A DNA stretch of 64,000 bases, taken from the NCBI GenBank assembly GCA_951406725.2, contig OX597819.1, positions 88,474,001 to 88,538,000 on the forward strand, in the 5' to 3' direction. Both the position numbers and the translations under genes were made by a program. Within the stretch, counting starts at the first letter, position 1; every line of letters begins with the position of its first letter. Positions 29,790 through 62,232 of this stretch are shown piece by piece. The notes beneath the pieces are model-generated. The model saw nothing but the letters and a program-made list of their open reading frames with translations, made no database searches and was not told where the DNA came from. This DNA is from Octopus vulgaris (Eukaryota).

Positions 29790-30225
29790 GGGTGAGCTGG
29801 CAGAATCTTAAGCACGCCAGGCAAAATGCATAGAGGTATTTCGTCCGGCGAGCTGGCAGAATCGATAGCACGCCGGGCGAAATGCTTAGCCGTATTTCGT
29901 CTGCCGTTACGTTCTGAGTTCAAATTCCGCCGAGGTCGACTTTGCCTTTCATCCTTTCGGGGTCGATAAATTAAGTACCAGTCAAACACTGGGGTCGATA
30001 TAATCGACTTAATCCGTTTGTCTGACCTTGTTTGTCCTCTCTGTGTTTAGCCCGTTGTGGGTAGTAAAGAAATAGGTATTTCGTCCGTCTTTACGTTCTG
30101 AGTTCGAGGTCAACTTTGTCTTTCATCCTTCTGAGGGCGATAAAATAAGTACCAGTTATGTACTGGGGTGTATATAATCGACTTGCCCTCCCCCCAACCC
30201 ACCCCGAAATTGCTAGCCTCCAACC
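29790..30225 (+). mobile_element. Nested SINE-B: a tail-type-2 copy (29848-30073) inserted into an older SINE-B
   Basis: 14-bp TSD aggtatttcgtccg at 29834-29847 and 30074-30087. Confidence 0.9.
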
Positions 30226-31014
30226 AAAGTTTGTGCATGTATGTGAGCGTGCGAGTGTGCGCATTCTAAACATTAATTTCTAATATAGTCCCTTGTGATA
30301 ACACCGATGACGTTTGGAGTTGTGTACTGTTTTTCAGGCTACCAAAGCTTAGCGAGATTTCAAAGCATTTAAGATGATAACAAAGACTATCCGCTAAATG
30401 AAATGCCTGTCATCGCAGAGTCTAAAAACGACAATTTAGCCAATTTAATAGACCACTGATCTTTACTAATTTCACATAATTTTATCGACACCTAGAAGAT
30501 CAAGTCAATTCGGCAAGATTTCAACTTGGAATGTTAAGCGACGAAACTCAATACCGCAAGCCATTTTCTTCGACACTCCATTGTTTCTATTTTTCCACCA
30601 AACTACTTCTGCCAATGCAACATCTTTCGGCTATCCATCATTTTTGCTCAATCCACCATTCTGCTTCTGCAGATCCATCATCTTTTCTACTCATCTATCA
30701 GACAATTAAATAAATATTAAACTGCAGCTGTCCTGGGTTCGGCTATAACTTACGTCTTACTGTTCTTATATAAACGAATATCTTAAAGATGTTTTTATTT
30801 ATTATTTTATCTGTATATATTGTTGAGATTGTTGGTTTTATATAAACACACGCGCACACACAAACGAACAAATACACACATACATACGTATATGTATGTA
30901 TAAATGTATAATGCGATGTATCTGGTGATACCCTATAGAACCTTTCTATTACTCTTCCTGACTTTTTCTCATCTCCTTTTTTCTAATTATTCTCGTTCCT
31001 TCTGTCTTCCCTTT

Positions 31015-31348
31015 TCTTCTTCTTCTTCTTCTTCTTCTTCTTCTTCTTCTTCTTCTTCTTCTTCTTCTTCTTCTTTTTCTTCCTCTTCTTTTTCTTCCTC
31101 TTCTTCTTCTTCTTCTTCTTCTTTTTTTCTTCTTCTTTTTCTTCCTCTTCTTTTTCTTCCTCTTCTTTTTCTTCCTCTTCTTTTTCTTCTTCTTCTTCTA
31201 CTTCTTCTTCTTCTTCTTCTTCTTTTTTTTCTTCTTCTTTTTCTTCCTCTTCTTTTTCTTCCTCTTCTTTTTCTTCCTCTTCTTTTTCTTCTTCTTCTTC
31301 TTCTTCTTCTTCTTCTTCTTCTTCTTCTTCTTCTTCTTCTTCTTCTTC
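31015..31348. repeat. Polypyrimidine (CTT)n compound array with a 15-bp sub-unit
   Basis: Directly visible; source of the poly-E/K and poly-S/L ORFs. Confidence 0.95.
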
Positions 31349-33204
31349 CATTTTCTACCTCCCTATCGTTGACTTTCTTGCTTTCCGTCTTTCTTTCAGT
31401 TTAGATTTATTTCTTTATCTACTATTGTATTTATTCCTACACTCTTTCTTTAACAATCAACTATGGACGGTTGGGTGTGTCAATCCTCTGTGATAAGCTT
31501 AATTCATTTACTTGCCAGTATCGTGACCGCTGACACAGTGAAGCGATCAGTAATGCGTATGTGTGTACACGCACGCGTGCATGCGACTGTGTGTACGTGT
31601 GTGTGTGCGTGTGTGTGTATGCATTTGTGTGTGAGTATTAGCGAACAGGAGAAATATACTCGATACTGTTGTAAAATATAATATTTGAGCTGATCAAGTT
31701 GCCTGTTACTCTTGTGTTTCCTAAATGTGTACGGCTTGTCCTCCAGGCAGGAAAGAACTGGATGATAAAGAGGGATTACTCAGCGTAAATGTAGATAGAT
31801 GGCAGCATAAGACTGGCCGAATAGTTGAGAAGATGGTGAATTTTAATCAGACGATTGTCTATCGTATATACATACACACATATACATTTATAAAGGCCTT
31901 TAGCCTTGAGTCGGAAGAGAAACATGAAAAGGAGAAGTGTAGTAATAGTGAAGGGATATCAATTCTATTCTTAGAGATAGGAGTCATGATAAGTTGGAAG
32001 TCATTACTTCTGTTTCTATTTGACAATTTGCTAACAGGTAGTAGAATAGCGACAAGGAGTTTGTATTAGACTTACTACTAACAACTTTGAAATTAGTAAC
32101 TATTCTCATATCTATTCCTTCAGAAACTGCGAAAAAAATTATACCACACTTTCGGAGTGTATACAAATATCGAAGGATAGGAACGCGCCAATATATCCCA
32201 AAAGCTAAACCACACAGAAGAGAAGAGATTATGTGACTTTTGTATAACTGAGGGGCTTGAAATAGTTTTGCCATTAGATTTTAATGACTATTCTAAATTA
32301 TGAAGTACAATAAATTGCCTTTTGATTTTCTATGCTGATTTTCTATAATGAATATTTTTCTCTTCCATACATAACATGAAACTACCATAAGCGATCCAAC
32401 TCTTGAACAACTTACAAAATGTACCCACAAGTTAGTGCCCTTTTCTCTACCTACACTCTGAATTGTCCTGATTTAACTACATTTATTTTTTCTGGTTTCT
32501 GTTCATTGCCCCCTTCTTGTATATTTCACCAAATTCTCAGTAACTGTATATGTGGGTGTACCTCGATACATGCATGTACACTGCTTATTATATTTATGCT
32601 ATATTTCTTATCTTGATCCTATCTTACTGTAAATGTTGTACACTTACATGCGTTTCTATTTCTGACTATTTGACCTAGAATTATATAGTGATTTTTTTGT
32701 CGTCAGTATGCTTGCAAATTATTAATTATATTATTTGCTTTTGATCTCGTAGATTTTTTTTCCTTTATAGGAAATGTATAGACTTTACAAGCTCATAACA
32801 GCTTAAGTGCCTTACTAATATTAACTTTATGTGCCCTGTTTAACTTTTAATTTTTACATCGAATTAAATTACTTTTTTTTTAGTGTTAGGTTGAAGTAGT
32901 TGCTTACAAGTTGAGGGGGGGTCTGTTAATCTAACTAAATATCTGTTTCATTTGTTCTATATATTGTTTGACTTACTGTAACATATTGATATATTTCCTC
33001 TGAAATTGACATAAATACCCGTCTACGATGTACTCTCGGGATCTTTGTACGGTTTTTTATGAGCATTTGCTTTGCTTATTTTATGGTCATAAGTGTCTCA
33101 TTCTATGTTCTCATACCTCTTTTGTACTGATAACTGGAGTATTAAATTTAATAATTTTTTCTCTCTCAGTTTGATAGAATGATAAATTGTTTATTTTATA
33201 TTTT

Positions 33205-33597
33205 GGATCTTTTCAGTTTGACCGGCAGATTTTTAAAATAATTTCTTTGTAACTAAACACTTTTAAACTTCGTATACTGGTAGAATGTGTTTATAAAACA
33301 TCTTTTTCTCTTGGCTTTCTTGAGAAAATTCTGTAGTTTGTAAGATATTTGGTCTTTTATTTCTTAATTTTCGGCAATTTCAACCAATCAATGACGTCTA
33401 TTGAAGTGAAAACAATATCTGCCGAAGTCTGTCAACAGCAATTTAAAGACCAAGTATCTTACAAACTACAAAATTTTCTCAAGAAAGCCGAAAGAAAAAG
33501 ATGTTTTATAAACACATTCTACCAGTATACGAAGTTTAAAAGTGTTTAGTTACAAAGAAATTATTTTTAAAATCTGCCGGTCAAACCGAAAAGATCC
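33205..33597. mobile_element. Foldback MITE with ~155-bp TIRs and GG...CC ends (Merlin-like)
   Basis: ggatcttttcagtttgaccggcag... / ...ctgccggtcaaaccgaaaagatcc. 8-bp TSD tatatttt / tttatttt (7/8). Confidence 0.8.
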
Positions 33598-33634
33598 TTT
33601 ATTTTTAATATTTACATACATATATATATATTAA

Positions 33635-34140
33635 GGTGGTGAGCTGGCAGAATCGTAAGCACGCCGGGCAAAATGCTTTGCAGCATTTCGTCCGTCGTTA
33701 CGTTCTGAGCTCATATTCCGCCGAGGTCGACTTTATCTTTCATCTTTTCGGAGTCGATAAAAATAAGTACCAGCTGATCACTAGGATCGATGTAATCGAC
33801 TTGCCCACTCTCACGAAATTGCTGGCCTTGTGCCAAAATTTGAAGCCAATATTTACATCATATGTGTATGTGTGTGTGTGTGTGCTTGTCTCTGTGTGTG
33901 TGTGTGTATGTGTGTCTTAGTGTTTTTTTTTGTTTGTTCCCACCACCATTTGACAACTCATGTTGGTTTGTTTACGTCTGCTTGACTTAGCAGTTCGGTA
34001 AAAGATAATGCGATACAATAAGTATCAGACGTAAAAGAAGAAACATAAGTACTGTGGTTGATTTTATTCAACTAAAACCCTTGAAGGTGGTGCTCCTGTA
34101 TGGCTGCAATCCAATGAGTGAAACAAGTAAAGGATAAAAA
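33635..34140 (+). mobile_element. SINE-B (33635-33852) followed by a diverged SINE-A 3' half
   Basis: Matches both family consensus patterns seen elsewhere in the window. Confidence 0.75.
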
Positions 34141-34781
34141 ATAGTTTTTAGAAATAAATATGATGAGTTTCTTTTTTTGCTTGCATTACAAAAAATATTT
34201 TCAATACGTCTTTGTATTTTTCTTGAAATTTTGAAATTTTTTCTCGTTTTTTTAACCGTTAACTTTTGCATTATTCTTTTTGTTCTGTCAGTAGCAGACA
34301 ATCAATTATTCTCTTCTCTGATTTATTTATTTATTTATTTATTTATTTACTTATTTTCAAGACACAAGCATGCCTCAACTTACGTCTCTTTCAACATCAC
34401 GTCGTTTTCTTAAGAAATTAAATGCAAAGAATAAACCTTAACAGCAATCGATTTATCCGAATAAATGTTAGTCTCGGCGAAAATACTTAAATCCACAAAA
34501 ATGATTTTAAAAGCATCTAAAAACCAATAGTGAAGGGAAAAATCAAATGAAATACATGTGAAAATATGTGCAAAGCATATTCTTGAAACAGATATAAGCT
34601 AATAATGTCGTCGTTTTTCAACTTAAGTTGCATCTCTTGGAACTAATTATCATCGTATTTTCAGATATGCCTACGCTGACCAATATTTCAGTACTTTCTA
34701 GAAGATATTTTAGTTTTTAGTTAAAAGTTATTCACCTATTCGGAGACTTTCTTTCTACAGATACTCGTTTGGTCTTCTTTT

Positions 34782-34844
<63 letters not shown>

Positions 34845-35134
34845 CCTCTCACTCTCTCTTTCTCTCTCTCTCACACGCTTTCTCTATCTCCTGTGTCATT
34901 TTTTTTTCTTTACTTTGACCGAGGAACGAATATGTGAATTTCCAAATTTTATTTCTCAGCCGATCTCAAATCAGTTGTAATATGCATTCAAACAGTTATG
35001 TTCCTATTAGGTCATACATTTTAAATAAAAGAATATAAATGTACATTTACATTGTAACTGAGTCTTTTATGGACTTCTTGAATTTTATTCAAGATTTACA
35101 ATAAATATGTGTGTGAGTTTATGAATGCAGGTGA

Positions 35135-35190
<56 letters not shown>

Positions 35191-36366
35191 ATATTGTGTG
35201 TGTGCGTACGTGCGTGTGTAGGGGTGTGGGAGTGTTTGGGTGTGTGTGCGTAAGCGTAGGTGCATGCAATAGTAAGAAATAAACGAAAAAAATTCAAAAT
35301 TCGAAATTCTGTTTTCTTTTTATTCTCGCCTTTCTCTCATTCTTTATTGTTCTCTTTCAAAACTCTTTCTTCATTCTTTTTTCTTTTACACTCTCTCCCT
35401 CCCCTTTCTCTCTCTCTCTTTCTCTCTCCCTCTCTGTCACCCCCTCTCTCTCTCTTTCTCCCCCTCTCTGTTTGAATTTTGCAATACCATTTAAATATAT
35501 CTGAATGCATTCATTCGCGCAGATTCGCATGCTATACAAATCGCATGGGAAATTCATATTCACATATACTTACTTTCCAAATTAACCTACATACACATAT
35601 ACACATATATATACGTATGTGCAAAGATACGCGCACGCACACAATTCATACATACACACACATGCAATTGTGTGCGTGTGGTGTTTTATATTCGAAGTAA
35701 TCTTGTGTGTTTGCATAATGGTCTACTTTTGAGGGTATGGTGACATAACCAATCGGACGTGCATGCATATATGTGTATATATGCGTGTGTATGCTTATAT
35801 ATGTACACGATGTCCGTATGTATATATTTATGCATAGTATGCATGCATGTATACACACAGATACACACACGAACATACACACTCTCTCCCTCTCTAAAAA
35901 TGCTCTTCAGAGAAATGCGAAGAGAAGAATTTATAAACCCATTATATATACATATTCAGGAGTAGTGACAAAAAAGTAAAAATAAAAACATTAAATCAGC
36001 AAATCAATAACTAACAAAAATACTTAAAAATCACTCTATCTTTAAAATTAAAAAAACCTATACTAATGGTACAGAGGGTAAGGCAGTAGGCTTCTATACA
36101 AGGGGTGTTGTAGGAACGACGTATTAAAAGGAAAATGATGGAGTTAATTGAAAAAAAAAAGGTTAAAAGAATTAAAAATATAGACATACAGCTGTAAAAA
36201 ATTAAAAAAACGATTATTGGAGAAAGGCCTAACAAAAATAGTGTTAAATTTTCTGTTTGGATATACTTAAGCGTTTACGTACGTACACACACACACACAG
36301 ATAGATAGATATGTGCGTTTGTTTATGTACGTGTGTGTTTGTGCGTTTGTTTATGTACGTGTGTGT

Positions 36367-36407
<41 letters not shown>

Positions 36408-36587
36408 CGTATATTCACAGAGACACAAAAAGAGAGAGTGAGAGATAATGATTCAGATAAATATGATTAAAATTTGATATATGGCGGTGCCCCAGCATGG
36501 CCACAGCTCGTGAGCTGAAACTAGATAAAATATTAAATTAAAATAATATATACATATACACATATAGATGCACCTACATATATACTA

Positions 36588-36688
<101 letters not shown>

Positions 36689-37142
36689 CAGAATACTAAG
36701 GAAAGAATGCAAAGATTTTTTGCTCGATAGCTGTTTCTGGAAGCTCGGAAGTACGTAATAAACTTAATGTCCATAATTAGCAGATGGAATATGCAAGACG
36801 TCATGGGTATGCAACCAGTACATGGTTGTGTAGAGATTTTACCATAAGGCCGGCTAACTTCGTGATGATCTGTTGTAATCAAGCATCTAACTGCACTTGA
36901 AATATCTAAGGCAGCGGTTCTAGACAACCAGAATAGTGAAACGTACGTAAGGAACAAATTATATAAACTTTTGCTTCTCGTAATTTCTCCTACAGTTCTT
37001 CTGCATATTATAGTTATTAGTAATTTAAGTATCATAATAACCAAATCACTATACTGGAAGCAGACTGGATAAAGTAAATTTAGATAGAACTCTGAACCCC
37101 AAAATAGTAATCGTACATCTAGCAATACATACCAGATATATA

Positions 37143-37180
<38 letters not shown>

Positions 37181-37317
37181 GCACATATATATATATACAT
37201 ATATATTTACACTCACACACACACATATATATATATGTATATATACACATACACATGTATATGCATACATATATATGGATGTATATAAATAGATCTCTCG
37301 GATAGATAGATGGATAG

Positions 37318-37650
<333 letters not shown>

Positions 37651-37652
37651 AC

Positions 37653-37722
<70 letters not shown>

Positions 37723-38349
37723 TCTTTTATTCTGTTACTTGTTTCAGTCATTTGACTGCGGCCATGGTGGTGGTGGTGGTGGTGGTGGTGCAGGTCGTGG
37801 TGGTGGTGGTGATGATAATGACGACGATGACAACGATAATCATGATGATCGTGATGATGATGATGACGCCTGCGATGTGCAGAAACACCTGCGATGAATG
37901 TTATATTTTGATCAATGAAAATAGAGGCACCAACACATCCACCAAACAGCAACGGAAGTACCACTGGCACCATCAATATCACCAGTGCTACAGCCACCGC
38001 CCCCCCCCCCCCCACACACACACGTAAACATACACACACTACCATCACCATCATCACCACAGTGATATAGGTGTAATAGAAGGTCCACACACGGTTACAG
38101 CACATGGTAATGTATTCTGCTGTAAATTTACTGTTCTGAAAATATTTGAAACTCTCACCACTTCTCCCTCGGTCCTGTCTCACTCTTTCTCTCTCTCTCT
38201 CTCTCTCTCCCTCCCTCTCTACGTATGTGGGAGTATGCACGTGTGAGTACGTGTGTACATATGTTTGTTTTTTAAACGTGTCTCTGAGCGAAATTTCATT
38301 TCTCTGATTATAAAGCGGTTTCCACAAACACCCACTCAAAGATTAATGT

Positions 38350-40460
<2,111 letters not shown>

Positions 40461-40969: not shown

Positions 40970-41120
<151 letters not shown>

Positions 41121-41127
41121 CATCATC

Positions 41128-42575
41128 ATTCAGTGGGTTTATTTTTATATCGTGCTTTCACTTCACTACCGAGCGCAGCTCTGTGTGCCTTGGGTATGTG
41201 CTGTGATTTGTTGTAATGCTCTGATGGTTACTGTATTGAAAGTGTTCTACGTAGGATGTGTGCGGTGCCTAGTAGTGAAATTTTCTCTATGTTATATGAG
41301 TTTGTAAGTCCTGGTGTTTTTATTATGTATTTGTCTGAATATTTTTTTATCATGCCTAATGCACCTACTATGATAGGAATTATTTCTGTTTTTAGATTCC
41401 CCATTCTCATCATCATCATTGTTCGACCGTGGTCGAGACAATGGAATTTACCATGCTATGCCAGACTTCACGGTCCATCATGACATTACGGAGGTCCTGT
41501 TGCTGGATGCCTGTATCCCTGGAGATTATATCAGGGTAGGAGAGTGTGCGCCCTCTGGTATTGCGAGTAGATGGCTTCCAGAGGAGAAGAGTAGAAATTA
41601 CCTCTTTTTCAGCTCTACAACAATGTCCAGCAAACTGGACTCTCTTACCTTTCACAAGAGATGACACAGGTGGTAGTTTCCCATATATTTGCATTTTGGT
41701 TGGATGGCGCTTCCACGAGAGATTTTGAGCTCTCATAAGGAGGCGAGTGTAGGTTCCATCCAACCGCCTCTCAAGCTTCTTTGATAACGTCCAGGTTTCT
41801 GAGCCATATAGTAGAATTGGTTCGACTGTGGCTTTGAAGATTTCAAGTTTGAAGTCTCTACTTAGATTTGATGACCAGATCATTACAGGCTGACCAGGCC
41901 ATACCCTTTCTAGTTAGAAAGTCTTTTCCAGATGATGATATGTATGACCCAAGATATTTGTAATCAGAAACCATATTTAAGGGCGCATTGTTGAGAGTAT
42001 TTATGATGCAATCACTGTTGGACTGGCATTTGTTTATGTATTCAGTCTTGGCTCATTGAGGTAAAGACCTACACAATTTGAGGCTTGTTCAAGAGATTGT
42101 ATAAGAGACTGGGCATTGGAGAGAGAATCACTGATAAGAGCGATGTCGTCAGCAAAGTCAGTGTCTCTCAAGTACTCAGCTGGGTGTCTGGAACTTCTTC
42201 TTGGTTTTATTTTAAAGCCCTTACCAGAGATGGTATCAACTGACATACGTAGCACATAATCAACAGCAACATTCTAGTTACCTCTGTTTCCAGGTCTTTG
42301 TATTTTGAAAGTTTCTCCATTTCTTTTAGAGACACGTTGTCATCTGCCGGTATTGATACATCAATTAGAAAGCATTTTTTTTTCTTCATGATCTCTGACA
42401 ACTATATCTGGTCTGTTGGCCTTAATTTCTTTATCAGTGTGTATTGGCATATCCCAGAGTACGGTTGCTTTCTCGTTTTCTGTGACCTTTTCTGGTGTGT
42501 ACCTATAACATCTTTTTTCTGTTGTTATTCCATAATGTTGGCATAGCTTCCAGTGTATGTAGGTCCCAACTCTGT
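41128..42575 (-). mobile_element. R4/Dong-type RLE LINE 3' fragment (same family as 26428-27129), split by an RTE insertion
   Basis: ORFs 42361-42594, 42207-42401 and 41228-41419 match the 26428 copy. Its 3' end abuts (TTA)n at 40972-41120. Confidence 0.9.
41408..42269 (-). mobile_element. 5'-truncated RTE-clade LINE (RT C-terminal half) with (ATG)n tail
   Basis: DTDFADDIALISD, YKYLGSYI, ILLYGSETW and FAGHC motifs, with frameshifts. TSD cattct at 41402-41407 and 42270-42275. Confidence 0.9.
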
Positions 42576-42672
42576 ATATACATTTATCATACAATAAATA
42601 TAGCTTGGCAAAATAATTACCAAACTAAAACAAGCACTTCGAATCGATATGCCCGACTAAAACACTGGAGGC

Positions 42673-42734
<62 letters not shown>

Positions 42735-42735
<1 letters not shown>

Positions 42736-43063
42736 GCTCCTGCCGGCAGAATCGTGAGCATGCCTGACAAAACGCTTAGCGGCATTTCTTCCGGTCTTAA
42801 CCTTCTGAGATAAAATTCCGCCGAGGTTGACTTTACCTTTCATCCTTTCTTTCGAAATCAATTAAATAAGTACCAGTTACTCACTGGGGTTGATATAATC
42901 GACCTAATTCCTTTCCCCAAATTTCAGGACTTGTGCCTACAGTAGAAAGGATTGTTGTTGTTGTTGTTGTTGTTACGCAGGGGTCGATATAATCAACTTT
43001 TTCCGTTTGTCTGTCCTTGTTTGTCCTCTCTGTGTTCGGCCCCTTGTGGGTAGTAAAGAAATA
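42735..43063 (+). mobile_element. SINE-B (tail type 1) followed by a truncated tail-type-2 fragment
   Basis: Matches family motifs; the second piece starts at ~42975. Confidence 0.75.
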
Positions 43064-48878: not shown

Positions 48879-48924
<46 letters not shown>

Positions 48925-49902: not shown

Positions 49903-50029
49903 CCAGGGCCAGACGAAACTTGAAATTCTAGTCAACTAAAAAAAAAAGGACCCCCTTCGTGCATACCCTCTCCACGTACCGATGTTGTTCAAGGGAAAGG
50001 CAAAGGCCAATAGAGCTTGGCATCAAGTT

Positions 50030-50460: not shown

Positions 50461-50670
50461 CAAAAATCATAAAATGATAATGTTACCTGCGATATACAGT
50501 ATTGAGTTATATTACTTAGTTTTAGTTTAGCTGTGTCGCTAAGAAGCTCACCTGCTCAAGGTACCGATTTCGCGGCACTTAGGCTAAGTGTCTTCTACAA
50601 TAGCCCGGATCGACCAATATTTTATGAGTGAGTTTGGTTGACGGATATTGTGTGGAAGCTTGTTGAATAA

Positions 50671-50803
<133 letters not shown>

Positions 50804-51944
50804 CAGGTGAAAAAAGATTAGAAATCTATGCAAATCAAATTTTTTTTATATATGAAAGATGGAGGTAGAAACAGTACAAAAGTAAATCTAAGACATTTCA
50901 ATTTAGAACGCATTTAATAAAATGATTTAAAAAGTATATAAAGAAAGTATAAAATATTACCGATTTCGATGATGAATTTCTTAGTACTGAAAATTTCTTA
51001 TTACTAAAAATTTATAAAAATTTTGAAGTAAAAACAGTTTATCTTCCGTTTGGTGGTCAAAACATGTCTGGAGTTTTTTCGTTGAAATCTCCTTTAAATA
51101 TAGTTTGGTATAGAGTCCAAGGTGCTAGAGAGAAAGAAATGGGATGTAGTTTTGTCTATTGTCTAAATATATCTATATATATTTATGTGTGTGTGTGTGA
51201 GAGAAAGAGAGAGAGAGAGACTTTTTGTGTTTGTGTTTATCCCCCTACTGCTTGACAACCAGTGTTGGTTTGTTTACAACCCCGTAACTTAGTGGTTAGG
51301 CAAAAAAAAAAAAAAAAATAGAATATGTGCCACACTTTTAAAAAAAATACCGGGGCTGATTTTTTCGACTAAATCCTTCGAGGTGGTGCACCAGCATGGT
51401 TGCAATTCAATAACTGAAATAGGTAAACGATAAAAATGAAAGATATTATTAATGGTTGCTGTTTCCTTTTCATTTGACTGTTTGTTCCATTGTATTTAAC
51501 TGAAGATATTCAGATTTTGTTTATTTATTTACATAGACCATTAATTTTAATTTACAAAATCTATTTTCTTTCAAAGAAATACATATAAATAAAAAAAGAA
51601 TTATTTGTATTTACATACAAAAACAATTATTTATATTTAAATGCTTTCACGCACATAAATATTAGCAAAATCGGTTCGAATTTAATTAGCTCATAATTTT
51701 ATTTTTAAAAATATAAATATAAAATTGCAAGTAGCTATTAAATGCTAGCAAGCAGTCATCATCGTAGGTATGTATGTACTGAACTTATGTAGATAATTTA
51801 TTCTGTATGTAGGAAATACCATTAAAGAATTGGTTTCTTATTTTCACATAGAAAGACTATTTTCCACGCTAGTGAACATTAAATAGAATGCGACTGGTCA
51901 AAAAACTTTTTAAAATTTGCCACATAAAATGTTACCTAATAATG

Positions 51945-52341
51945 GTCTCAAATTTTGGAACACAGCCAGTAATTTCAGGGAAGTGGGTAAGTTGACTATA
52001 TATTGACTCCAGTGCTCAACTGATATTTATTTTGTCGACCACAAAAGGATGAAGAGCAAAGTCGACCTTGGCGGCATTTGAACTCAGAACGTAAAAACGG
52101 ATAGAATACCTATTTCTTTACTACCCACAAGGGGCTAAATACAGAGAGGACAAACAAGGACAGACAAACTAATTAAGTCGATTATATCGGCCCCAGTGCA
52201 TAACTGGTACTTAATTTATCGACCCCGAAAGGATGAAAGGCAAAGTCGACCTCGGCGGAATTTGAACTCAGAACGTAATGGCAGACGAAATACGGCTACG
52301 CATTTCGCCCGGCGTGCTAACGTTTCTGCCAGCTCACCACC
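51945..52341 (-). mobile_element. SINE-B tail-type-2 copy joined to the body of an older SINE-B
   Basis: Minus-strand junction ...gtaaagaaata|ggtattctatccgtttttacgttctgag near 52110. Confidence 0.85.
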
Positions 52342-52904
52342 CAAAAGATATTACCAAATAACTATTATTTTGTCACATAAACTATTGCCTACTCAGTGAA
52401 AAGATGTGCACCAATGCAAATTCTAGTTACAATAGTGCAAAACTAAGACAAGCGAATGCCGCAGTTAATTAGAATTTTGATGATGTATCGACGTTAAGTA
52501 TCAAACACAGATTTTAAAACTAATACTGGTTTTGGTGCATACAACGAATTTTTACCCAGCACGCCAGCAAACTGCAATATCAGTGATTTTCTAATCACTA
52601 TTTTTCATTATCGCTAACGGCGGATTTTGTGTAAGCATACGGTTGCCAATGGGTACTTTTAATACTTACGAAGCCCAAAGAAGCAGAAAGGAACGTTTAA
52701 TAATGCTACCACATCTGCAGGACGTATTTTCGTTAGCTGCTGATATAACTTTGGGTTATTTAATACTGCATGTCAACAGGAAATGTCATCTCTAGAACGA
52801 ATATCTCAGTTAATTAGGATTTCTGTGAAGTGCACATATATAGGTTTACCTACCAAAGTACTTAGCGATGGCCGAGTATTTTAGCAAAAAGTAAAAAAAA
52901 AACC

Positions 52905-53065
52905 TGGCTGTGTGGGAAGTAGCTTGCTTACCAACCACATGGTTCCGGGTTCAGTCCTACTGCGTGACATCTTGGGCAAGTGTCTTCTGCTATAGCCCCG
53001 GGCCGACCAATGCCTTGTGAGTGGATTTGGTGGACGGAAACTGAAAGAAGCCTGTCATATATATG

Positions 53066-53135
<70 letters not shown>

Positions 53136-53350
53136 TATATGTTTGTGTGTCTGTGTTTGTCCCCCTAGCATTGCTTGACAACCGATGCTGGTGTGTTTAC
53201 GTCCCCGTCACTTAGCGGCTCGGTAAAAGAGACCGATAGAATAAGTACTGGGCTTACAAATAATAAGTCCCGGGGTCGATTTGCTCGACTAAAGGTGGTG
53301 CTCCAGCATGGCTGCAGTCAAATGACTGAAACAAGTAAAACAGTAAAGAG
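52905..53350 (+). mobile_element. SINE-A
   Basis: Near-consensus copy. Confidence 0.9.
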
Positions 53351-53744
53351 AGAGAGTCTGCGATAATGTAGAGATTTCTGCATGCATTTCAATCTATATG
53401 AATAAGGAACTGGAATCTCTGCATTTTTCTCTTTTTTACGTGAAATAAGAATTACTACGAAATGTTCTTATTTATTTATTTCTGCATTCCAACACATCGC
53501 TTTAAAAATATTCATTGGCTTTGCTATCTGGTGCTATGATGAAAAGACAACCAGAGTTCCCAATGCTTGAAATACCAACATAAAGTTGACAGTGGGAAAG
53601 GCATGATCTGTCAGGTTCAATCTAACTTCTTTTGCTGATTGCCTGTTGAGATTTATTGTTAGTCATGACGAAACTGGGAACTGGCTTCGGTATTATTCTG
53701 GAAAACAGGCAACTGGCACAAGCAAAAATTACATTGAAAATATT

Positions 53745-53960
53745 GGTTTCAAATTTTGGCACAAGGCCAGCAATTTTAGGGGAGAGGGCAAGTCGATTAC
53801 AACGACACCAATGCTCAACTGGTACTTATTTTATCGACCCCGAAAAGATGAAAAGCAAAGTCGACCTCGGCAAAATTTGAACTGAGAACGTGAAGGTGGA
53901 CGAAATGTTGCTAAGCCTTTGGCCCAGTGTGTTAATGATTCTGTCAGATTGCTGCCTTAA
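53745..53960 (-). mobile_element. SINE-B
   Basis: Reverse complement of the family motifs. Confidence 0.8.
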
Positions 53961-54059
53961 TCACACGGAAAATATCAATAAAAAAGTTTACGACATGATA
54001 ATTTAGAAGACCCATGAAACATGAAATAAATCGCTTTTAACGGTGAACTCGAAGCAGTG

Positions 54060-54515
54060 CGGGTTCGGAACCACTGCGTGGCACTTTGGGCAAGTTTCTT
54101 TTACTATAGCCTCGTGCTGACCAAAGCCTTGTGAGTGGATTTGGAAGACGGAAATTGAAAGTAGCCAGTTGTATATATATATATATAGTATTTATTCTAT
54201 CAATGGCTTTTGCCGAACCGCTAAGTTACGGGGATATATAAACGCATCAATACCAGTTAAGCGGTGGTGGAGGACAGGTGTGTGTGTGTGTACGTGTGTG
54301 TTTGTGTCTTCGTCTCTGTCTTCCACCACCGCTTAACTGGTATTGATGCGTTTATATATCCCCGTAACTTAGCGGTTCGGCAAAAGCCACAGATAGAATA
54401 AATACTAGGTTTTAAAAAATAAGTACTGGAGTCGATTCATACAATTAAAAAATCGTTCAAGGTGGTGCCCCAGCACGGCCACAGTCAAATCATTGAAACA
54501 AGTAAAAAAAAAAAA
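54060..54515 (+). mobile_element. SINE-A with an internal inverted duplication
   Basis: 54186-54277 is the reverse complement of 54316-54407 with 3 mismatches. Confidence 0.85.
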
Positions 54516-54898
54516 AGAGAAAAATACATTCAACTTTCTCCATCCAAATGGGGGGGTGGTGGCGGGTTAACCCAATATTTACACGCAATTATTTATAGTT
54601 TTATCTACTTCAAGGTCCACCGGTTAAAACGACTTATTAATAGAAGTAATTTTCATTTGCTTCTTCGGAAAAAAAAGTGCAAGACGCTCTTTTCGGAGTT
54701 CATGCACACGCCAGAGAGCTTCCTGCCTTGAAAGCATTCTCCCTTTGGGGGTTTAAAAATAAGTGTTTGAGTTGCGAATCAATATGAATGTAATTATTTT
54801 TAAACAAGCAATTTTTTAACGTAATCTTCCAGTTAAGCGGTTGATTGTTTGCCTTCATGGCAAGGGAGACAATATCTTGCTAGAATCCACATTATTAA

Positions 54899-55313
54899 GG
54901 CGGCGAGCTGGCAGAATCGTTAGCACGCCGGACGAAATGCGTAGCCGTATTTCGTCTGCCGTTACGTTCTGGGTTCAAATTCCGCCGAGGTCGACTTTGT
55001 CTCTCATCCTTTTGGGGTCAATTAAATAAGTACCAGTTACGCACTGGGGTCGATGTAATCGACTTAATCCGTTTGTCTGTCCTTGTTTGTCCCCTCTGTG
55101 TTTAGCCCCTTGTGGGTAATAAAGAAATAGGTATTTCGTCTGCCGTTATGTTCTGAATTCAAATTCCGCCGAGGTTGACTTTGCCTTTCATCCTTTTGGG
55201 GTTGATAAATGAAGTACCAGTTACGCACTGGTGTCGATGTAATCGACTTAATCCCTTTGTCTGTCCTTGTTTGTCCCCTCTATGTTTAGTCCCTTGTGGG
55301 CAATAAAGAAATA
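54899..55313 (+). mobile_element. SINE-B tail-type-2 dimer
   Basis: Outer 17-bp TSD agaatcca(c/t)attattaa at 54882-54898 and 55314-55330. Inner junction aaagaaata|ggtatttcgtc near 55130. Confidence 0.9.
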
Positions 55314-55419
55314 AGAATCCATATTATTAATATTAACTTGGTTTCTCTTTTCTTTTTCTTTTTTTTTTTTTTTTCGTTAGTGAAAAGAATAACAAAGTAT
55401 CTTCATACATTTATTTACC

Positions 55420-55626
55420 ATTTGCTTGCTTCAGTCATTAGACTGCAACCATGCTGGGGAACCGCCTTGAACGATTTTAATCAAATGAATCAATCCCAGG
55501 CCCTCTTTTCTTTAAAGCCCGGCACTTATTCAATCAGTCTTCTTTTTTTACCGAACTGCTAAGTTACAAAGACGTAAACACACCAACACCGATTATCAAG
55601 TGGTGATAGGGACAAACACAGGCACA

Positions 55627-55705
<79 letters not shown>

Positions 55706-55846
55706 CGACGGGCTTCTTTCTGTTTCCATCAAGGTTTTGGTCGGCCCGAGTCTATAGCAGAAGACACCTGCCCAAGGTGTCATGCCGTGGCCCGAACTCG
55801 GAACCATGTTGTTGAGAAGACAATTTTTTACCACACAGCCACGCCT
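55420..55846 (-). mobile_element. SINE-A, diverged
   Basis: Similarity to the family consensus. Confidence 0.8.
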
Positions 55847-56263
55847 TTATTTGATTAAATTTTCTTTCTTTTAATTTTTCTCCCAAATTTATTTGTAAAA
55901 TCCTAAGCATCGGCATAAAGCTATTTCAGCCTCGTTAGATCTCTTCAGTACAGAGTATTCAGTGTCTACTAAACATTACATTAAATTCAATTCATAATTC
56001 ATTATCTAGAAAGAGTGGATATATAAACTGTTTCAAAGACAGCAATTTTCAGTGGAAGCGGATTAGTCAATAAAATCAACCCCACTACTTGACTAGTATT
56101 TATTTTATGCACTCCGAAAGGATGAAAGGCAAAGTTGAGCTTGGTAGGATCCGAACTCAGAACGTAAACGGCCGAAAGAAACGCCGCTAAACATTTTCCA
56201 ACGCGCCTACGATTCTGCCAGCTCACCTCACAGTTCGTTAATAGTATAAAGAGAGGGAGAATT

Positions 56264-56264
<1 letters not shown>

Positions 56265-56327
<63 letters not shown>

Positions 56328-56460
56328 GGTGGTGGTGGTGGTGGTGGTGGTGGTGGTGGTGGTACTACTACTACTACTACTACTAGTAGTAGTAGTAGTA
56401 GTAGCAGCAGCAGCAGCAGTAGTAGTGGTAGTAGTAGTAGTAGCAGCAGCAGCAGCAGTA
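56265..56460. repeat. Compound trinucleotide array (AGT)n(GGT)n(ACT)n(AGT)n(AGC)n
   Basis: Directly visible. Confidence 0.95.
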
Positions 56461-56629
56461 AAGGAAATTTGAATTTTATGTATGCATGAAAATGCTGTTC
56501 TGCTTTAAAAAAAATTAAGCATTTCAACTATTTGATCAAAAATTCAACTCTCAATGATTTCACGATCAGGGCTTTCTGTGTAGAAATCAGTGGGTCATAA
56601 TAACATCCAGATTTTGCTTTTAAGCTCTT

Positions 56630-57290
56630 TCGAAGAACCCGGTCTTGGAAAAAAAAGTTTCAAGGGCACAAATAACAACATAAGACTCCCATGACAATTC
56701 CTTCTTTTCAAGGTAGTTATTTAAAATGTAAAAATGTCTTGGAGTGCCTGACATTTCTTTGCAAAGAAAGAAAGAAAGAAAGAAAGAAAGATTATTCACT
56801 ATTTGATCTCCATCAATGAAATGAATGAATGCCAAAAGCTGCGCTTCGTTGGTAATGTTTGTTGACTCATCAGCCAGCAAAACAAAATTAGAATGTTAAA
56901 GCTTATCACGACATACATTTTCTTACATGTCAGCAGACAATTCAAAAATGCGCTTACGAACTGTATTATTTGAGTGAGGAATTTTACTTATTTCATGTTC
57001 TCATTTGATCTCCTAGCATTGTCTTTCAACAATCTTTCTGCATGCAAGCAAACAAACTTTCTGCATGCAAGCAAAATAATTGATTCTGTCAAAGTATGAG
57101 ACTTCGATTTTTTTCCCCCTTTTTGTGTAGCCATTTCGAATATTTCATACGAAGCAATTTGAGCCTTTTCAAAAACCTTTTAATATACTTTTAAAATTAG
57201 TTTTGTTTGCTCTTTCTGACAATCATCTTTTAAAATAATTCGACTTTTTTTTTTCCTTATCGACTGAAGTATTTAGATTTGAAATATCTA
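56630..57290 (-). mobile_element. hAT Buster/Charlie-type transposase remnant
   Basis: Minus-strand pieces EKAQIASYEI, KSHTLTESII, SNNTVRKRIFELSADM, LADESTNITNEAQLLAFIHF and LNNYLEKKELSW, matching motifs of ZBED5/SCAND3-like Buster transposases. Frameshifted. Confidence 0.8.
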
Positions 57291-57389
57291 TTTACTGTTT
57301 TGTTGGCATACACTATTTTTATTTCAATTAATTTTGAAAATATGTAAGAATTTGGCGAAATGTCTTTGTTATTATTAAGACGATATTCA

Positions 57390-57842
57390 AAGTGGCGAGC
57401 TGGCAGACTCGTTTACTCGCCAGACAACAATGCTTCTCGACATTTCGTCCGTCTTTACGTTCTGAGTTCAAATTCCGTCGACTTTACCTTTCGATAAAAT
57501 AAGTTTCAGTCGAGCACTGAGTTGATGTAATCCACTGGCTCCTCCTCCCCTAAAAAATTTCATACCATTTTGATTATTAAGATGGAGTTTGAAATCTAAG
57601 CATGAAATTTTCATGGTAAACTTCTTTTTATCTTTTGCATGTTTCAGTCATTAGACTGCAGCCATGCTGGGGCACTTCCTCGAAGAATTTCAGTTGAATG
57701 AATCGACCCAGTATTTCTTTCTTTCTTTTTAAGCCTAGTACTTATTCTATCAGTTTCTTTCTGCTGAACTGCTAAGTTACGGGGATGTAAACACACCAAC
57801 ATCGGTTATCAAGCGATGGTGGGGAGACAAACTGACACACAA

Positions 57843-57902
<60 letters not shown>

Positions 57903-57975
57903 CGTGCTTCTTTCAGTTTCCGTCTACCAAATCCATTCACAAGGCTTTGGTCGGCCCGAGGCTATAGCAGAAGAA
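57390..57975. mobile_element. SINE-B (+, 57390-57565) and 5'-truncated SINE-A (-, 57625-57975)
   Basis: Family motifs. Confidence 0.75.
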
Positions 57976-57992
57976 ACTATATATACTGTATA

Positions 57993-58805
57993 TACGAGGG
58001 GTTACCCAAAAGAAACCGGAATTTTGCAATATTATTTTATTCTCTTAGTTTTATATGTTTACACTTCTATTGCCTTCATTGTGTTCTCCATTTGAAGCAA
58101 TGCCGTGGCCCGAAAGTGTTTTCCACTGTTCGAAGCAGTCCTGGAACTCTTGCGAAGTAATGACTTTTAACGTCTCCGTCGTTATTTTTCTTCACTTCTT
58201 TCACATCTACGAAACGTTCTCTTTCAAGGACTTTTTTCATCCGGAGAAACAAAAGAAAGTTGCAGAGAGCAAGATCGGGTGAATAGAGAGGGTGGGTAAA
58301 CGGATTCATGCCATTTTTGGTCAAAAATTGTCTTATGCGAAGATGCATTGCCGTGATGAAACCATCACTCTCCACTTTGCCACTGGTCAGGGCGTTTTCG
58401 TCTCACTGTATCTCGCAAACGCTGCAGAACTGCCAAGTAAAATGTCTGGTTAAGTTTCACTAGGAGGAACAAATACTGTGTGGAGAACTCCTTTCGCATC
58501 GATAAAACAAATCAGTATCGTCTTGACATTGGCCTTCACTTGACGCACTTTTGTGGGGCATGGTAACATTGAAGCTTCCATTGACTTGATTGCTGCTTCG
58601 TTTCCGGGTCGTAATCGTAGAACCAACTTTCGTCACCAGTGATGAACGAATTTGGTCTTCAAGCAAGAAGTGACCATTCCTAAAGCGTGAAAAACCACTC
58701 GTAAACTTGTGTTTTGCTCATGGCAATGTCCTTATAAGCTGTTTGAACACTTGTTCAACAATTGTTTCGGCTCTGTTTTCCCCCCACAGAAAACAGAATT
58801 CCTTT
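57993..58805 (-). mobile_element. Defective mariner (DD34D-type) transposon
   Basis: Terminal TA|cgaggggttacccaaaagaaaccggaa. Minus-strand FITGDESWFYDYDPETKQQSSQW and HPLYSPDLALCNF. Internally deleted and frameshifted. Confidence 0.88.
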
Positions 58806-58807
58806 GT

Positions 58808-59130
58808 TTCCTTTCATCTGGGTCGATGTAATCGACTTAATCCGTTTGTCTGTCCTTGTTTGTCCTCTCTGAGTATAGCCCCTTGTGGGTAGTAAAGAAA
58901 TAGGTATTTCGCCTACCACTACGTTCCGAGTTCAAATTCCGCCCAGGTCGGCCTTGCCTTTCATCACGACGACGGGCTTCTTTCAGTTTCCGACTACTAA
59001 ATTTTGGTCGGAAACTGACTGGTCCGAAGCTATAGTAGAAATCATTTACCCAAGGTGCTACGCAATGAGACTGAACCCGGAACCATGTGGTTAAAAAGCA
59101 AGCTTCTTACAACACAGCCACGCCTGTACC
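58808..59130. mobile_element. SINE-B tail-2/body junction fragment (+) and SINE-A head (-)
   Basis: aaagaaata|ggtatttcgcc near 58903; SINE-A motifs at 58965-59130. Confidence 0.75.
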
Positions 59131-59403
59131 TATTTAGATCATTTTAAAATAAGAAGCTTGTATCACAGCAGCAAAGGCGGGTCTCAGGCAGATTGGTATC
59201 AAGAGGATTAACTTGCCGATTCGTCGCACTGACTCGTTTGCCATTTTATTTCCGTTTAACAAACACACGAATAGAAGTTGGTTCTCATTTCCAGTTCAAG
59301 GAAAACCAAATCTTAAACAGTTGCCATCGTGGTACATGAATTTGCAGTATTTGAAACGTGGTTACTACAAGATTCATTGTTCCTTATAAATCTATGTGCA
59401 CGC

Positions 59404-59512
<109 letters not shown>

Positions 59513-59854
59513 TCCTCATAAGCCTACTGGCTATTTGCAATATTAATGACGGAAAAGCCACTGTTATTCTATATATTGTTGGCATTGAGTTTTGGATCGT
59601 GAGCTTGCCCCAGAGAAAGCGCAAGAGCCGAAATCACGTGACCTGACAGTTCTGGCCCCGATGCAAGACGGTTCTCATCTGCTAGCGATATATGTCTGTG
59701 CTCTTAGCACCGTAGATCGACATGAGATCTCTCGAGGCGAATACCGCAGTATTCAACGTTCTCATAATACATTCACGTTAAGTAGGCTATAATGATGACT
59801 CCATACGCACGCGCGCACGCACATATGCACACACACGCACACACACACGCACAC

Positions 59855-59885
<31 letters not shown>

Positions 59886-60118
59886 TACTTATGCTTGTTT
59901 TATGTTAAATTATGATAAAAGCAATTTAACATTAAACTAAAGGTTTGCTCAGTATATTTTGTAGAGTACATACTTATTATTCTCACGAAGAAGAGTATTG
60001 ATAGTGACTTCGAAGTTTCAGCCTGCTGAACCATCATCGAAATGTCCAATGTTGATTAGCAGGCCTGAGCTTTGAAATCACTGTGAATACTATTTTTGGT
60101 AAACAATTAAATACGTGT

Positions 60119-60158
<40 letters not shown>

Positions 60159-60224
60159 GGCGCGGGCCTGGGTGTGTGGTAAGAAGTTCGCTGCCCGACC
60201 ACATACTCCCGGGTTCAGCTCTTC

Positions 60225-61035
60225 TAAGGAGTCCTATCAGAAGCAACCATCATTATATTTCCCGGCTGGATTCCCAACTATCACTAATTCTGACCATGGA
60301 TATTATCCAATTATCTTATTCCTGATCTCCTGCCGGTTGGCTCGGCTTGAAGAATACAACTTACGATTCTTTCCTGCGGCAATCTAATCACATGTCCGTA
60401 CTTCCAGAGCTGTAACTTCTCACGTAGCGGCTCGACTTGAAGGGACTCCCTGTTCTCCAAGTTACGAGAACGCCCTGTTGAGTAATGTAACTCCAGAAAC
60501 CCTTCAGAGGAGCTCCATTTTGGCAGCTTGTTTTCGCGATCTTACTCTTTCAGTCATTACCCAACATTCATGACCATAAGTGAAGATAGGCGCGAAATCC
60601 GAAATGAATTCCATCATTAACACGCAGTGGTCATTGGGAAGACTTTCTTGAGCTGTCTTCACAACGTTTATTGTTATCACTGCCTTTCAACACTCGACAG
60701 TGAATCCAACATTGATGACCATAGATGAGGATAGGCAAGAAAACCTATTTGAAGATATCGAGTTTGGCTTCTTTTTTTTTTACCAACCTCGGATTGAATG
60801 TCGAAGCTGGCGCATTATTGTATCAGCACCTGCAATTTTAGCATCCAGTTCAGCTTCCTGCCACCCGTCATTCATGAATACGGTCCCAAGATATCTAAAC
60901 TTCTCTACTTACCTCCATGATATTCGACTAACACGCTGTGGGTATTGGGAAAACTTTCTTGAGCAGACGAATATCTGTCTTCGCAGCGGTTATTCTCCTC
61001 ACTGCTTTTCAGCACATGACAGCGAATGCATTCAA
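60225..61035 (-). mobile_element. RTE-clade (Rex3/Expander-like) LINE remnant
   Basis: Minus-strand VEKFRYLGTVFMNDG, PIFTYGHECWVMTERVRSRKQAAKMELL*RVSG and ILQAEPTGRR. Confidence 0.8.
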
Positions 61036-61039
61036 AACA

Positions 61040-61456
61040 TACTCTTTTACTCTTTTACTATTTTACTTGTTTCAGTCATTTGACTGTGGCCATGCTGGAG
61101 CACCGCCTTTAGTCGAGCAAATCGACCCCGGGACTTATTCTTTGTAAGCCCAGTACTTATTCTATCGGTCTCTTTTGCCGAACCGCTAAGTGACGGGGAC
61201 GTAAACACACCAGCATCGGTTGTCAAGCAATGCCAGGGGGACAAACACAGACACACAAACACACACACACACACATATATATATACATATATACGACAGG
61301 CTTCTTTCAGTTTCCGTCTACCAAATCCACTCACAAGGCATTGGTCGGCCCGGGGCTATAGCAGAAGACATTTGCCCAAGATGCCACGCAGTGGGACTGA
61401 ACCCGGAACCATGTGGTTGGTTAGCAAGCTACTTACCACACAGCCACTCCTGCGCC
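61040..61456 (-). mobile_element. SINE-A, full length, young
   Basis: Near-identical to the 8100 and 11687 copies. Confidence 0.92.
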
Positions 61457-61709
61457 ATGTTGAATCTTGTGTATCAAGAAGGAAGCAAAATACTAGTATA
61501 GGAAAAAAAAGTAGAAAAGAATATTGTATAAAAGGAAACAAACATATAAAAAGAAAATTTATACATGAACTTGATCGGTTTGCATTTTAGCCACAGCTGG
61601 GTAGTGCGTTTAATTTGTTCACTGAACACCGCCGCGAATTCCCCCCTGTGTTTCAAACATTCCCCCTTAAATCACAAAACCCGGTGATCAACTATTATTT
61701 TATGTTATC

Positions 61710-62232
61710 GAATTTGAACTCAGAACATGAAAACAAACGAAATATCGCTAAACATTTTGCCTAGCGTGCTAATGATTCTGCCAGCTCGCCGCCATATTTC
61801 CATTATTAATATTATTCATATAATTAAGGCGGCGAGCTGGCAGAATCGGTAGCACGCCGGACGAAATGCTTGGCGGTATTTCGCCCGTCGCTACGTTCTG
61901 AGTTCAAATTCCGCCGAGGTCGACTTTGCCTTTCATCCTTTCGGGGTGGATAAATCAAGTACCAGTTACGCACTGAGGTCGATGTAATCGACTTAATCCG
62001 TTTGTGTGTCCTTGTTTGTCCCCTCTATGTTTAGCCCCTTGTGGGTAATAAAGAAACAGGTATTTTGCCCTTCTTTACATTCTGAGTTCAAATTCCACCG
62101 TGGTTGACTTTACCTTTCATCTCTTTCGAGGTCGATAAGATAAATACCAGTTGAGTGTTGGTGGGGGGAGGGTCGATGTAATCGACTTCCATCTCCCTCG
62201 AAATTGCTGGCCTTGTGCCAGAATTTGAAATC
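61710..62232. mobile_element. SINE-B head (-, 61710-61793) head-to-head with a SINE-B tail-2 copy plus older body (+, 61828-62232)
   Basis: Family motifs; junction aaagaaaca|ggtattttgcc near 62059. Confidence 0.85.

Follow-up and report, generated by a model that had tools for sequence, protein, structure and literature searches.

Tail-2 SINE copies nested at a single head position of older family members in Octopus vulgaris DNA

In the 64-kb window (the whole stretch of Octopus vulgaris DNA that was analysed), five of the seven SINE copies bearing the tail that we call tail-2 occupy a fixed site in one repeat, the head of another member of their own family. The data support these on-target copies being independent nested insertions into older family members. 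We tentatively propose, at slightly less than even odds (about 0.45), that young tail-2 copies reach this site, position 45, by target-primed reverse transcription, with the nick of a putative partner LINE chosen through pairing with the read-through end of the SINE RNA.

Results

Tail-2 copies repeatedly end at position 45 of a relative

The family gave 29 BLAST hits in the window and consists of short, dispersed, non-coding repeats with a common head, a common body carrying one of three types of tail, and flanking duplications. When the flanking repeats of six lone copies were assessed, three reached p<0.05, two lay at p 0.05-0.1 and one copy had none. By eye, set beside the box consensus, the head holds motifs that we take to be A- and B-box-like; ARAGORN reported 0 tRNA genes, and Rfam gave no tRNA match at E up to 10. 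Compared by description, the octopus tRNA-derived SINEs OK, OR1 and OR2 and the MetaSINE, CORE and Deu superfamilies would be alike in having a tRNA-like head, and MetaSINEs are described as having a shared body with interchangeable tails (PMC4824008), as in the present family. The tail-2 motif had 0 matches in metagenome contigs, viral contigs and prokaryote genomes.

A recount on both strands bore out the first-pass annotation, which had listed seven tail-2 copies with five at the same head site. Their 3' ends lie at 30074, 43063, 52111 (minus strand), 55129, 55313, 58902 and 62058, and a 3' poly(A) tail was seen in 0/7. The next six bases after tail-2 are GGTATT in the five on-target copies, which corresponds to position 45 of a family member on the same strand; the nested copies share one position and the sense orientation (5/5). 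The same annotation had called two copies off-target. This holds for 43063; the other, 55130-55313, is off-target at its own 3' end but also hosts the insert at 54902.

The probability that at least five of seven copies would fall on the site, calculated post hoc, is 2.5e-18 under random placement with 21 target heads assumed, and 3e-11 if insertion is limited to same-strand family members; chance is therefore rejected as the source of the repeated junction. GGTATT was found at 5/5 junctions vs 1/11 lone heads (p=0.0014), and host sequence variation begins downstream of it, at position 51. Position 45 itself lies just 3' of the loop in a hairpin of 11-12 bp in the SINE head, whose RNA stability gave z=-2.7 in one head and -1.05 in another. 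Since GGTATT occurs 28 times outside family members in the window and 11 times inside them (a count that includes the five junctions themselves; P of 5/5 inside = 0.002), pairing over 6-7 nt is not the whole targeting signal.

Two heads were present at one of the five on-target loci (29790) and a single young head at three (52338, 54902 and 61831), while the fifth, 58819, is a 5'-truncated fragment. The two 5'-truncated tail-2 copies are 43063, which is off-target, and 58819, which resembles a moved composite.

Both halves of the host are preserved at 29790

The following features were found at the two-head locus.

29774..29790, plus strand: outer (host) target-site duplication, left; right copy 30231-30247, 15/17 match (p=0.0055, with 2000 random segments of the window as control)
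29791..29847, plus strand: old host 5' half, positions 1-57; 7/44 differences from consensus, CpG intact 1/6
29834..29847, plus strand: inner 14-bp target-site duplication, left; right copy 30074-30087, 14/14 match
29848..30074, plus strand: young full-length tail-2 insert; 1/119 private changes, no run of 4 T
30075..30230, plus strand: old tail-1 host 3' half, from position 45; 6/109 private changes, 10-nt deletion

Both host halves and the perfect 14-bp duplication were thus as first annotated, and a 17-bp outer duplication encloses them. The 14-mer at 29834-29847 was matched by 0/15 other heads in the window, each of which had 2-5 mismatches. The upstream duplication shows that the host had AGGTATT beforehand, which is compatible with either an RNA pairing or an endonuclease model.

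Single-head composites and the remaining copies

The other tail-2 copies and their surroundings are listed below.

52111..52341, minus strand: young tail-2 insert, single head; private changes 0/44 in the head and 2/119 in the body
51940..52110, minus strand: old tail-1 host from position 45; 15/119 private
52342-52361 / 51923-51942, minus strand: decayed outer duplication around the 52 kb composite; 15/20, P=0.0004 at insert age
54899..55129, plus strand: tail-2 insert with the T-variant tail, single head; internal T4 at position 109
55130..55313, plus strand: C-variant tail-2 host, from position 45; own 3' end off-target
54882-54898 / 55314-55330, plus strand: outer duplication of the 55 kb composite; 16/17 match, p=0.001
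61828..62058, plus strand: tail-2 insert, single head; 2/44 and 2/119 private
62059..62235, plus strand: tail-1 host from position 45; T4 at position 49
61808-61827 / 62248-62267, plus strand: weak outer duplication of the 62 kb composite; p=0.0155, A+T-rich, gapped
42973..43063, plus strand: 5'-truncated tail-2 copy, off-target; immediately follows the microsatellite in which a tail-3 family member ends
58819..58965, plus strand: composite fragment, with insert from about position 146, tail-2 and host positions 45-107; 11/12 direct repeat 58807-58818 / 58954-58965

No clear target duplication was found around the 43063 copy. The composite fragment at 58819-58965 is flanked by a Mariner-like remnant (58200-58818, labelled from a broken translation judged by eye) and, in reverse orientation, a SINE from a different family, beyond which no host continuation at 58903 was found. 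Its bracket site is the sole non-family match among 127,976 positions; this site is non-cognate and unlike the junction motif, and the fragment is without any other LINE tail. Its move to a site of this kind suggests that RNA-DNA homology plays a part. It is a single locus, and DNA-templated break repair could also account for it.

Inserts are younger than their hosts

Private changes numbered 8/476 in the inserts vs 32/466 in the downstream host halves (p=7e-5), so that the divergence comparison proposed in the first-pass annotation came out with the inserts as the younger partner; taken per locus, the difference was significant in 1/4 pairs. The outer duplications carried 11/75 mismatches (P=4e-5 at insert age), having decayed at the host's rate, and the inner duplication carried 0/14. 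Composite heads are also young, with 2/132 private changes vs 26/218 in old tail-1 heads (p=3e-4). The single young head of 3/4 full composites makes replacement of the host head likely. Neither these missing host heads nor the relocated fragment at 58819-58965 had been accounted for in the first-pass annotation.

Host and insert differ in sequence by 10-21%, which excludes simple tandem duplication, as argued at the outset. The test for a dimeric master that had been set beforehand, a search for mutations shared by the downstream bodies, also spoke against a dimer: any one non-consensus letter was common to at most 3/5 bodies, and most of the shared letters are CpG-type changes or are also present in lone copies. 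Pairwise identity was 73-83% among downstream bodies, in line with the 69-85% among lone copies, and the downstream tails comprise three tail-1, one tail-2 and one cut. A fixed dimeric SINE was rejected on these grounds, its halves and flanking duplications not being of one age and its downstream halves having two tail types without shared diagnostic changes.

A broader form of this idea, already disfavoured and in our judgement improbable, is that the composite arose as a dimeric master or in one step, when a head-cleaved family RNA and a tail-2 RNA were joined by ligation or by a template jump. Position 45 would then be an RNA structural stop instead of a DNA target. The single head and single outer duplication of 3/4 full composites would fit this, as would the stable RNA hairpin at the junction. 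It is opposed by the unequal ages of the halves with their host-aged outer duplications, the two downstream tail types, locus 29790 with both host halves and an inner duplication, and the finding that no lone copy begins at position 45 among the 29 hits.

An origin at the DNA level, through hairpin breaks repaired with a family member or a composite already present as template, or through gene conversion or tandem duplication, appears very improbable to us. In its favour are the homology-driven nature of head replacement and of the 58819 bracket, a hairpin that could be prone to breakage and the very high abundance of the family; against this, the captured piece always stops precisely where tail-2 ends and never where tails 1 or 3 do, which such repair leaves unexplained, and the host-insert difference speaks against local duplication in its simple form.

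Candidates for a partner LINE

The first-pass annotation had ascribed the self-targeting to a site-preferring Tx1-clade LINE. Its nested-insertion part stands, given the fixed junction and younger inserts; its partner part found no counterpart, as no LINE carrying tail-2 or occupying the junction site was present in the 64-kb window. One T-rich fragment resembles a LINE 3' UTR:

37460..37650, minus strand: T-rich, LINE-3'-UTR-like fragment, last ~50 nt 74-80% like tail-2; in (TATC)n, single copy, no coding part

Judged by this resemblance, the fragment is possibly a relative of the partner LINE. The location of a tail related to tail-2 inside (TATC)n may be a sign of LINEs whose targets are set by their endonuclease. 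Another fragment, at 26341, is presumably R4/Dong-like, its clade being assigned from a motif, and gave a Pfam zf-RVT match below cut-off; it was rejected as the tail-2 partner, having a different 3' end and not sharing tail-2.

An alternative guide, which we consider quite possible though short of even odds, is a sequence- or structure-specific LINE endonuclease, of Tx1 type or another clade, that cuts heads at 44/45 while the SINE rides via a shared tail. The single-base constancy of the junction and the 14-bp duplication are consistent with this, as are the location of the junction at the hairpin loop and the kinship of tail-2 with the LINE-like microsatellite fragment, and an endonuclease motif would account equally well for the invariant GGTATT. 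SINEU-3 and Tx1-Mar are described as having common Mariner-N4 targets (PMC4494074), and 421 recent L1-Tx1 insertions are reported in O. vulgaris (PMC13282606). Conversely, a tail-2 LINE is absent from the window, at the site or elsewhere, the 58819 composite went into a site that does not resemble the motif, an ordinary 17-bp duplication accompanies the off-target C-variant tail-2 copy, and tail-2 copies are without a SINEU-like poly(A) tail. Of the two, we slightly favour read-through RNA pairing as the principal guide, with some site preference probably contributed by the endonuclease, since the 6-mer alone fails to explain site choice.

A proposed RNA-guided route to position 45

Pol III terminates at T runs. 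A run of T4 is absent from 3/4 full inserts and from tail-2 in all four, and by Pol III termination rules transcription of such copies should therefore read through. For tail-2 RNA, no significant fold was obtained (z -0.95 and -0.20). According to the pairing model, a nested source copy would be transcribed past tail-2 into the host GGTATT, and the RNA extension would then pair with the bottom strand, once nicked, of whichever family member it met. Daughter copies would in this way be directed to position 45 and acquire the extension in turn. For the 5' junction, annealing of the cDNA to the homologous host head would usually replace that head (3/4 full composites); less often, end-to-end joining would yield two heads and a 14-bp duplication, as at 29790. 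Pairing of the 3' tail with the primer and seamless 5' annealing are both described for R2 (PMC11371274, PMC2718515). Counted in favour of pairing are also the GGTATT at every junction, the non-cognate placement of the 58819 unit and a weaker junction signal in organism C, one of three organisms compared, in which the C-variant tail predominates.

A further-reaching reading, which we hold to be rather unlikely, is that target specificity is inherited through position and is not protein-coded. A terminator-less SINE would land once in a family member, and its read-through RNA would then guide it to the same base in many relatives, making it an RNA-guided homing SINE that overwrites host heads and thereby recycles and rejuvenates old family loci.

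Discussion

Insertion of a SINE into its own family, at one position and in sense orientation, has a precedent in the hotspot for Alu-into-Alu self-insertion at position 133 (Levy, Schwartz and Ast; PMC2836564), which that work attributes to endonuclease sites and to base pairing between RNA tail and target. As described there, poly(A) pairs with the A-rich linker, little or no duplication results, and 18,821 events stand against over a million Alus (PMC2836564). The tail-2 SINE instead uses a complex GGTATT site in the head and leaves a 14-bp duplication (29790) or a probably replaced head, and a large share of the subfamily is on target. In crocodilians, SINEU-3 (313/347) is reported to prefer strongly one site in an abundant DNA transposon, Mariner-N4_AMi, which Tx1-Mar LINEs also target, with a duplication of about 16 bp (PMC4494074). 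Its partner LINE was identified by the common target, and it is described with a poly(A) tail (PMC4494074). The tail-2 SINE recalls it in preferring a fixed site in an abundant transposable element, but its target is its own family and it is without poly(A). For R2 and R1, accounts describe 3' read-through pairing with the nicked primer, as proposed here, and upstream homology leading to seamless 5' junctions or replaced target; these elements are autonomous and their rDNA specificity is mainly protein-encoded (PMC11371274, PMC2718515, PMC5035012). The tail-2 SINE is non-autonomous and its own head would give the 5' homology. The Alu hotspot and the insertion of SINEU-3 into Mariner-N4 are precedents for the present case.

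SINEs are reported to make up 11.6% of the O. vulgaris assembly (PMC13282606). Target specificity is rare among SINEs. Homing of one subfamily mostly into its relatives would provide a safe harbour on the scale of so large a share of the genome, and would be a self-perpetuating way to avoid hitting genes. If so, such loci would be mis-annotated as dimers, and young heads within old duplications would distort repeat-age landscapes and presence/absence markers. Thousands of natural events would also offer a test of RNA-DNA pairing against endonuclease preference in LINE-mediated site choice.

Frequency beyond the window

In raw-read run X21, 19 of 12.9 million reads matched, none at ≥95%, with two over the tail and one through the junction. 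Contig depth from public runs, which cannot separate dimer from nesting, crudely suggests that ~35-70% of tail-2 copies have the position-45 junction in organisms A and B, and fewer in organism C. Deconvolution of the junction share was unstable with the assumed record length, and a simulation, itself crude (4000 copies, our own scoring rule and two assumed host divergences), was used alongside. The C-variant tail dominates organism C (4.6 of 5.5M, vs 9.5 of 57.3M in A), in which the junction signal is weaker.

A fixed junction in the SINE head

The window has 35.8% G+C and many microsatellites, and 29 BLAST matches to the SINE family were found in its 64 kb. Family copies consist of a common head and body of ~163 nt followed by one of three tails; family positions are numbered from window position 29847. 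As the first-pass annotation had reported, five of the seven copies carrying the second tail type (tail-2) run from the tail directly into position 45 of another family member on the same strand, the host, where the sequence reads GGTATT. The two copies it had called off-target (43063 and 55313) were likewise found not to continue into GGTATT at position 45. Chance placement was rejected (P=2.5e-18, or 3e-11 if confined to family members; both post hoc). The family head contains an 11-12 bp hairpin, and the insertion site is located just 3' of its loop. GGTATT was present at 5/5 junctions compared to 1/11 heads of lone (non-nested) copies (p=0.0014), and host sequence variation starts at position 51. 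Either the motif selects the site or the RNA brings the motif.

Nested insertion and the dimer test

At 29790, the perfect 14-bp TSD described earlier was recovered: the inner duplication, that of the insert (the upstream tail-2 copy), is exact and is matched by 0/15 other heads. The host has, in addition, its own outer duplication (15/17), which makes this locus a classic example of one element nested in another. Two heads were seen at 29790 only; the other full composites of insert and host, at 52338 (minus strand), 54902 and 61831, each have one head, and a single duplication flanks the two joined parts, its copies matching at 15/20, 16/17 and, weakly and with gaps, 18/21 positions, respectively. 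This is the appearance expected of a dimer, and we therefore tested whether the composites are dimers.

Over positions 45-163, changes private to one copy amounted to 8/476 in upstream parts versus 32/466 in downstream parts (p=7e-5), the difference by single locus being significant at 52338 only. Pairwise identity was 73-83% among downstream parts, 69-85% among lone tail-1 copies and 87-96% among inserts. Each non-consensus letter is common to at most three of the five downstream parts, which end in tail-1 (three), tail-2 (one) or are cut (one), in agreement with the earlier claim of independent insertions and not of a dimeric master. The four outer duplications showed 11/75 mismatches, 10.4 being expected at host age (at insert age, P=4e-5). 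Different private changes, mixed tails and host-age duplications make a dimer or template jump improbable. These data argue for the tail-2 copies being nested self-insertions into family members, with a probability of about 0.85.

The single heads are young: private changes number 2/132 in them, against 26/218 in the heads of old tail-1 copies (p=3e-4). In the simplest reading, a full-length host would have been present first and the incoming cDNA would then have annealed to the host head and replaced it. In the available parts of the sources, R2, with its seamless "anneal" 5' junctions (PMC11371274), and Drosophila R1 (PMC2718515) provide precedents for this step.

What sets the insertion site

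Tail-2 contains no run of four T. The first such runs come within host sequence, at position 49, 58, 109 or later, and a nested-copy transcript would thus extend past the tail into the host. At positions 109-112, CpG decay makes a four-T run in copies 54902, 55130 and 52110, which is likely a Pol III terminator. Insertion by TPRT guided by pairing of such RNA could set the site, a proposal that we give somewhat less than an even chance; that an RNA-guided homing mechanism is inherited through position is rather unlikely. For R2, target-like 3' sequence has been discussed as stabilising intermediates (PMC5035012, available part). GGTATT occurs 28 times in the window outside the family and 11 times inside, which counts against pairing alone; a more extended pairing, the hairpin, easier completion of the 5' end or a preference of the endonuclease must contribute as well.

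In the unit at 58819-58965, a truncated insert is followed by tail-2 and by host positions 45-107. A direct repeat (11/12) flanks the unit, its left copy being non-family and the sole such match in 127,976 positions. On our reading of this single case, homology would have primed a read-through RNA at a place that does not resemble the motif, although DNA-templated repair is possible for this unit; as the general explanation, DNA repair is very improbable. Next to it, 57950-58818 (minus strand) is a broken Tc1/Mariner-like transposase remnant, identified by eye from translation.

LINE-related fragments in the window
37460-37650, minus strand: T-rich, LINE-3'-UTR-like fragment in (TATC)n, its end resembling tail-2
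26341-27130, plus strand, and 41074-41395, minus strand: two 3' LINE fragments, ~90% alike, each with a (TAA)n end; by motif, we take them to be R4/Dong-like
41416-41913, minus strand: C-terminal fragment of a second LINE, adjoining the Dong-like fragment, with a weak DUF6451 match; presumably RTE-like

That a LINE endonuclease alone selects the site is possible, if somewhat less likely than RNA-guided TPRT. In its favour, the fragment at 37460-37650, which judging by its sequence is a candidate relative of the partner LINE, has its last ~50 nt in common with tail-2 and sits in (TATC)n; microsatellite-targeting Tx1 families likewise sit in microsatellites (PMC4494074), and L1-Tx1 was recently active in O. 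vulgaris (PMC13282606), according to the available parts of both. The 3' end of the R4/Dong-like fragment differs from tail-2. No coding part tying tail-2 to any clade was found in the window, and the Tx1-clade LINE named in the first-pass annotation is a putative partner. Nested self-insertion emerged better supported than in that annotation.

Public sequencing runs

At least half of the sampled window words were present in twenty public runs (11 studies, 7 organism codes), and 4 of 24 listed runs were aligned to window positions 54861-55160. In contigs of organism A (A, B and C being organism codes), summed depth was 73-92 on unique flank versus ~120 million on the tail. Depth past the junction relative to the tail, a signal that nesting and a dimer would give alike, fell to 0.256, 0.107 and 0.033 for A, to 0.275, 0.123 and 0.039 for B, and to 0.079, 0.045 and 0.028 for C; simulation without on-target copies gave at most 0.006. 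A crude simulation fit to these depths, which are no copy numbers and depend on the behaviour of the aligner, put the on-target share at roughly 35-70% in A and B and roughly 10-30% in C. Among the joints listed, tail-to-host joints from 55140-55143 back to 54962-54963 occur in A and B.

The C-variant of tail-2 accounted for 4.6/5.5M in organism C versus 9.5/57.3M in A, and off-target copy 55313 carries it. This suggests that targeting may be a property of the T-variant subfamily. Run X21 (raw reads), which has the same species label as the best-matching run, contains 1.9 billion letters but gave 19 matching reads, of which none reached 95%, and was left out of the depth analysis; filtering or different content may account for this scarcity.

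Relation to known systems

The feature is real and extends known target-specific or self-inserting SINE behaviour rather than opening a new class. Going by the available parts of the sources, the Alu-into-Alu hotspot (18,821 events via an A-rich linker; PMC2836564) is like the octopus SINE in its single-site, sense-strand self-insertion, whereas SINEU-3, with 90% target association, targets a DNA transposon and not its own family (PMC4494074). PMC4758252, PMC4640811, PMC4824008, PMC8967140 and PMC3747384, also available in part, were consulted too. The octopus pattern is not described in the literature searched, including PMC13282606 on O. vulgaris; subscription papers and Repbase Reports, mostly outside the search, may record it.

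Other arrangements of family copies

At 21221-21490, a family head is broken at position 74, and positions ~60-74 recur on the far side of a reversed SINE that belongs to a different family and has a (TA)-rich end, possibly a second nested insertion with duplication. At 61700-61831, a truncated minus-strand head and the plus-strand head belonging to the 61831 composite are ~40 nt apart and make up an inverted pair. Contigs of organisms A, B and C contain joints from 55064-55070 to 54895-54900, with another head ~60 nt after a family copy; these are frequent head-to-tail clusters of family copies. Inside the window, head-to-tail pairs are found at 50461/50227, 14009/14255 and 42742/42973.
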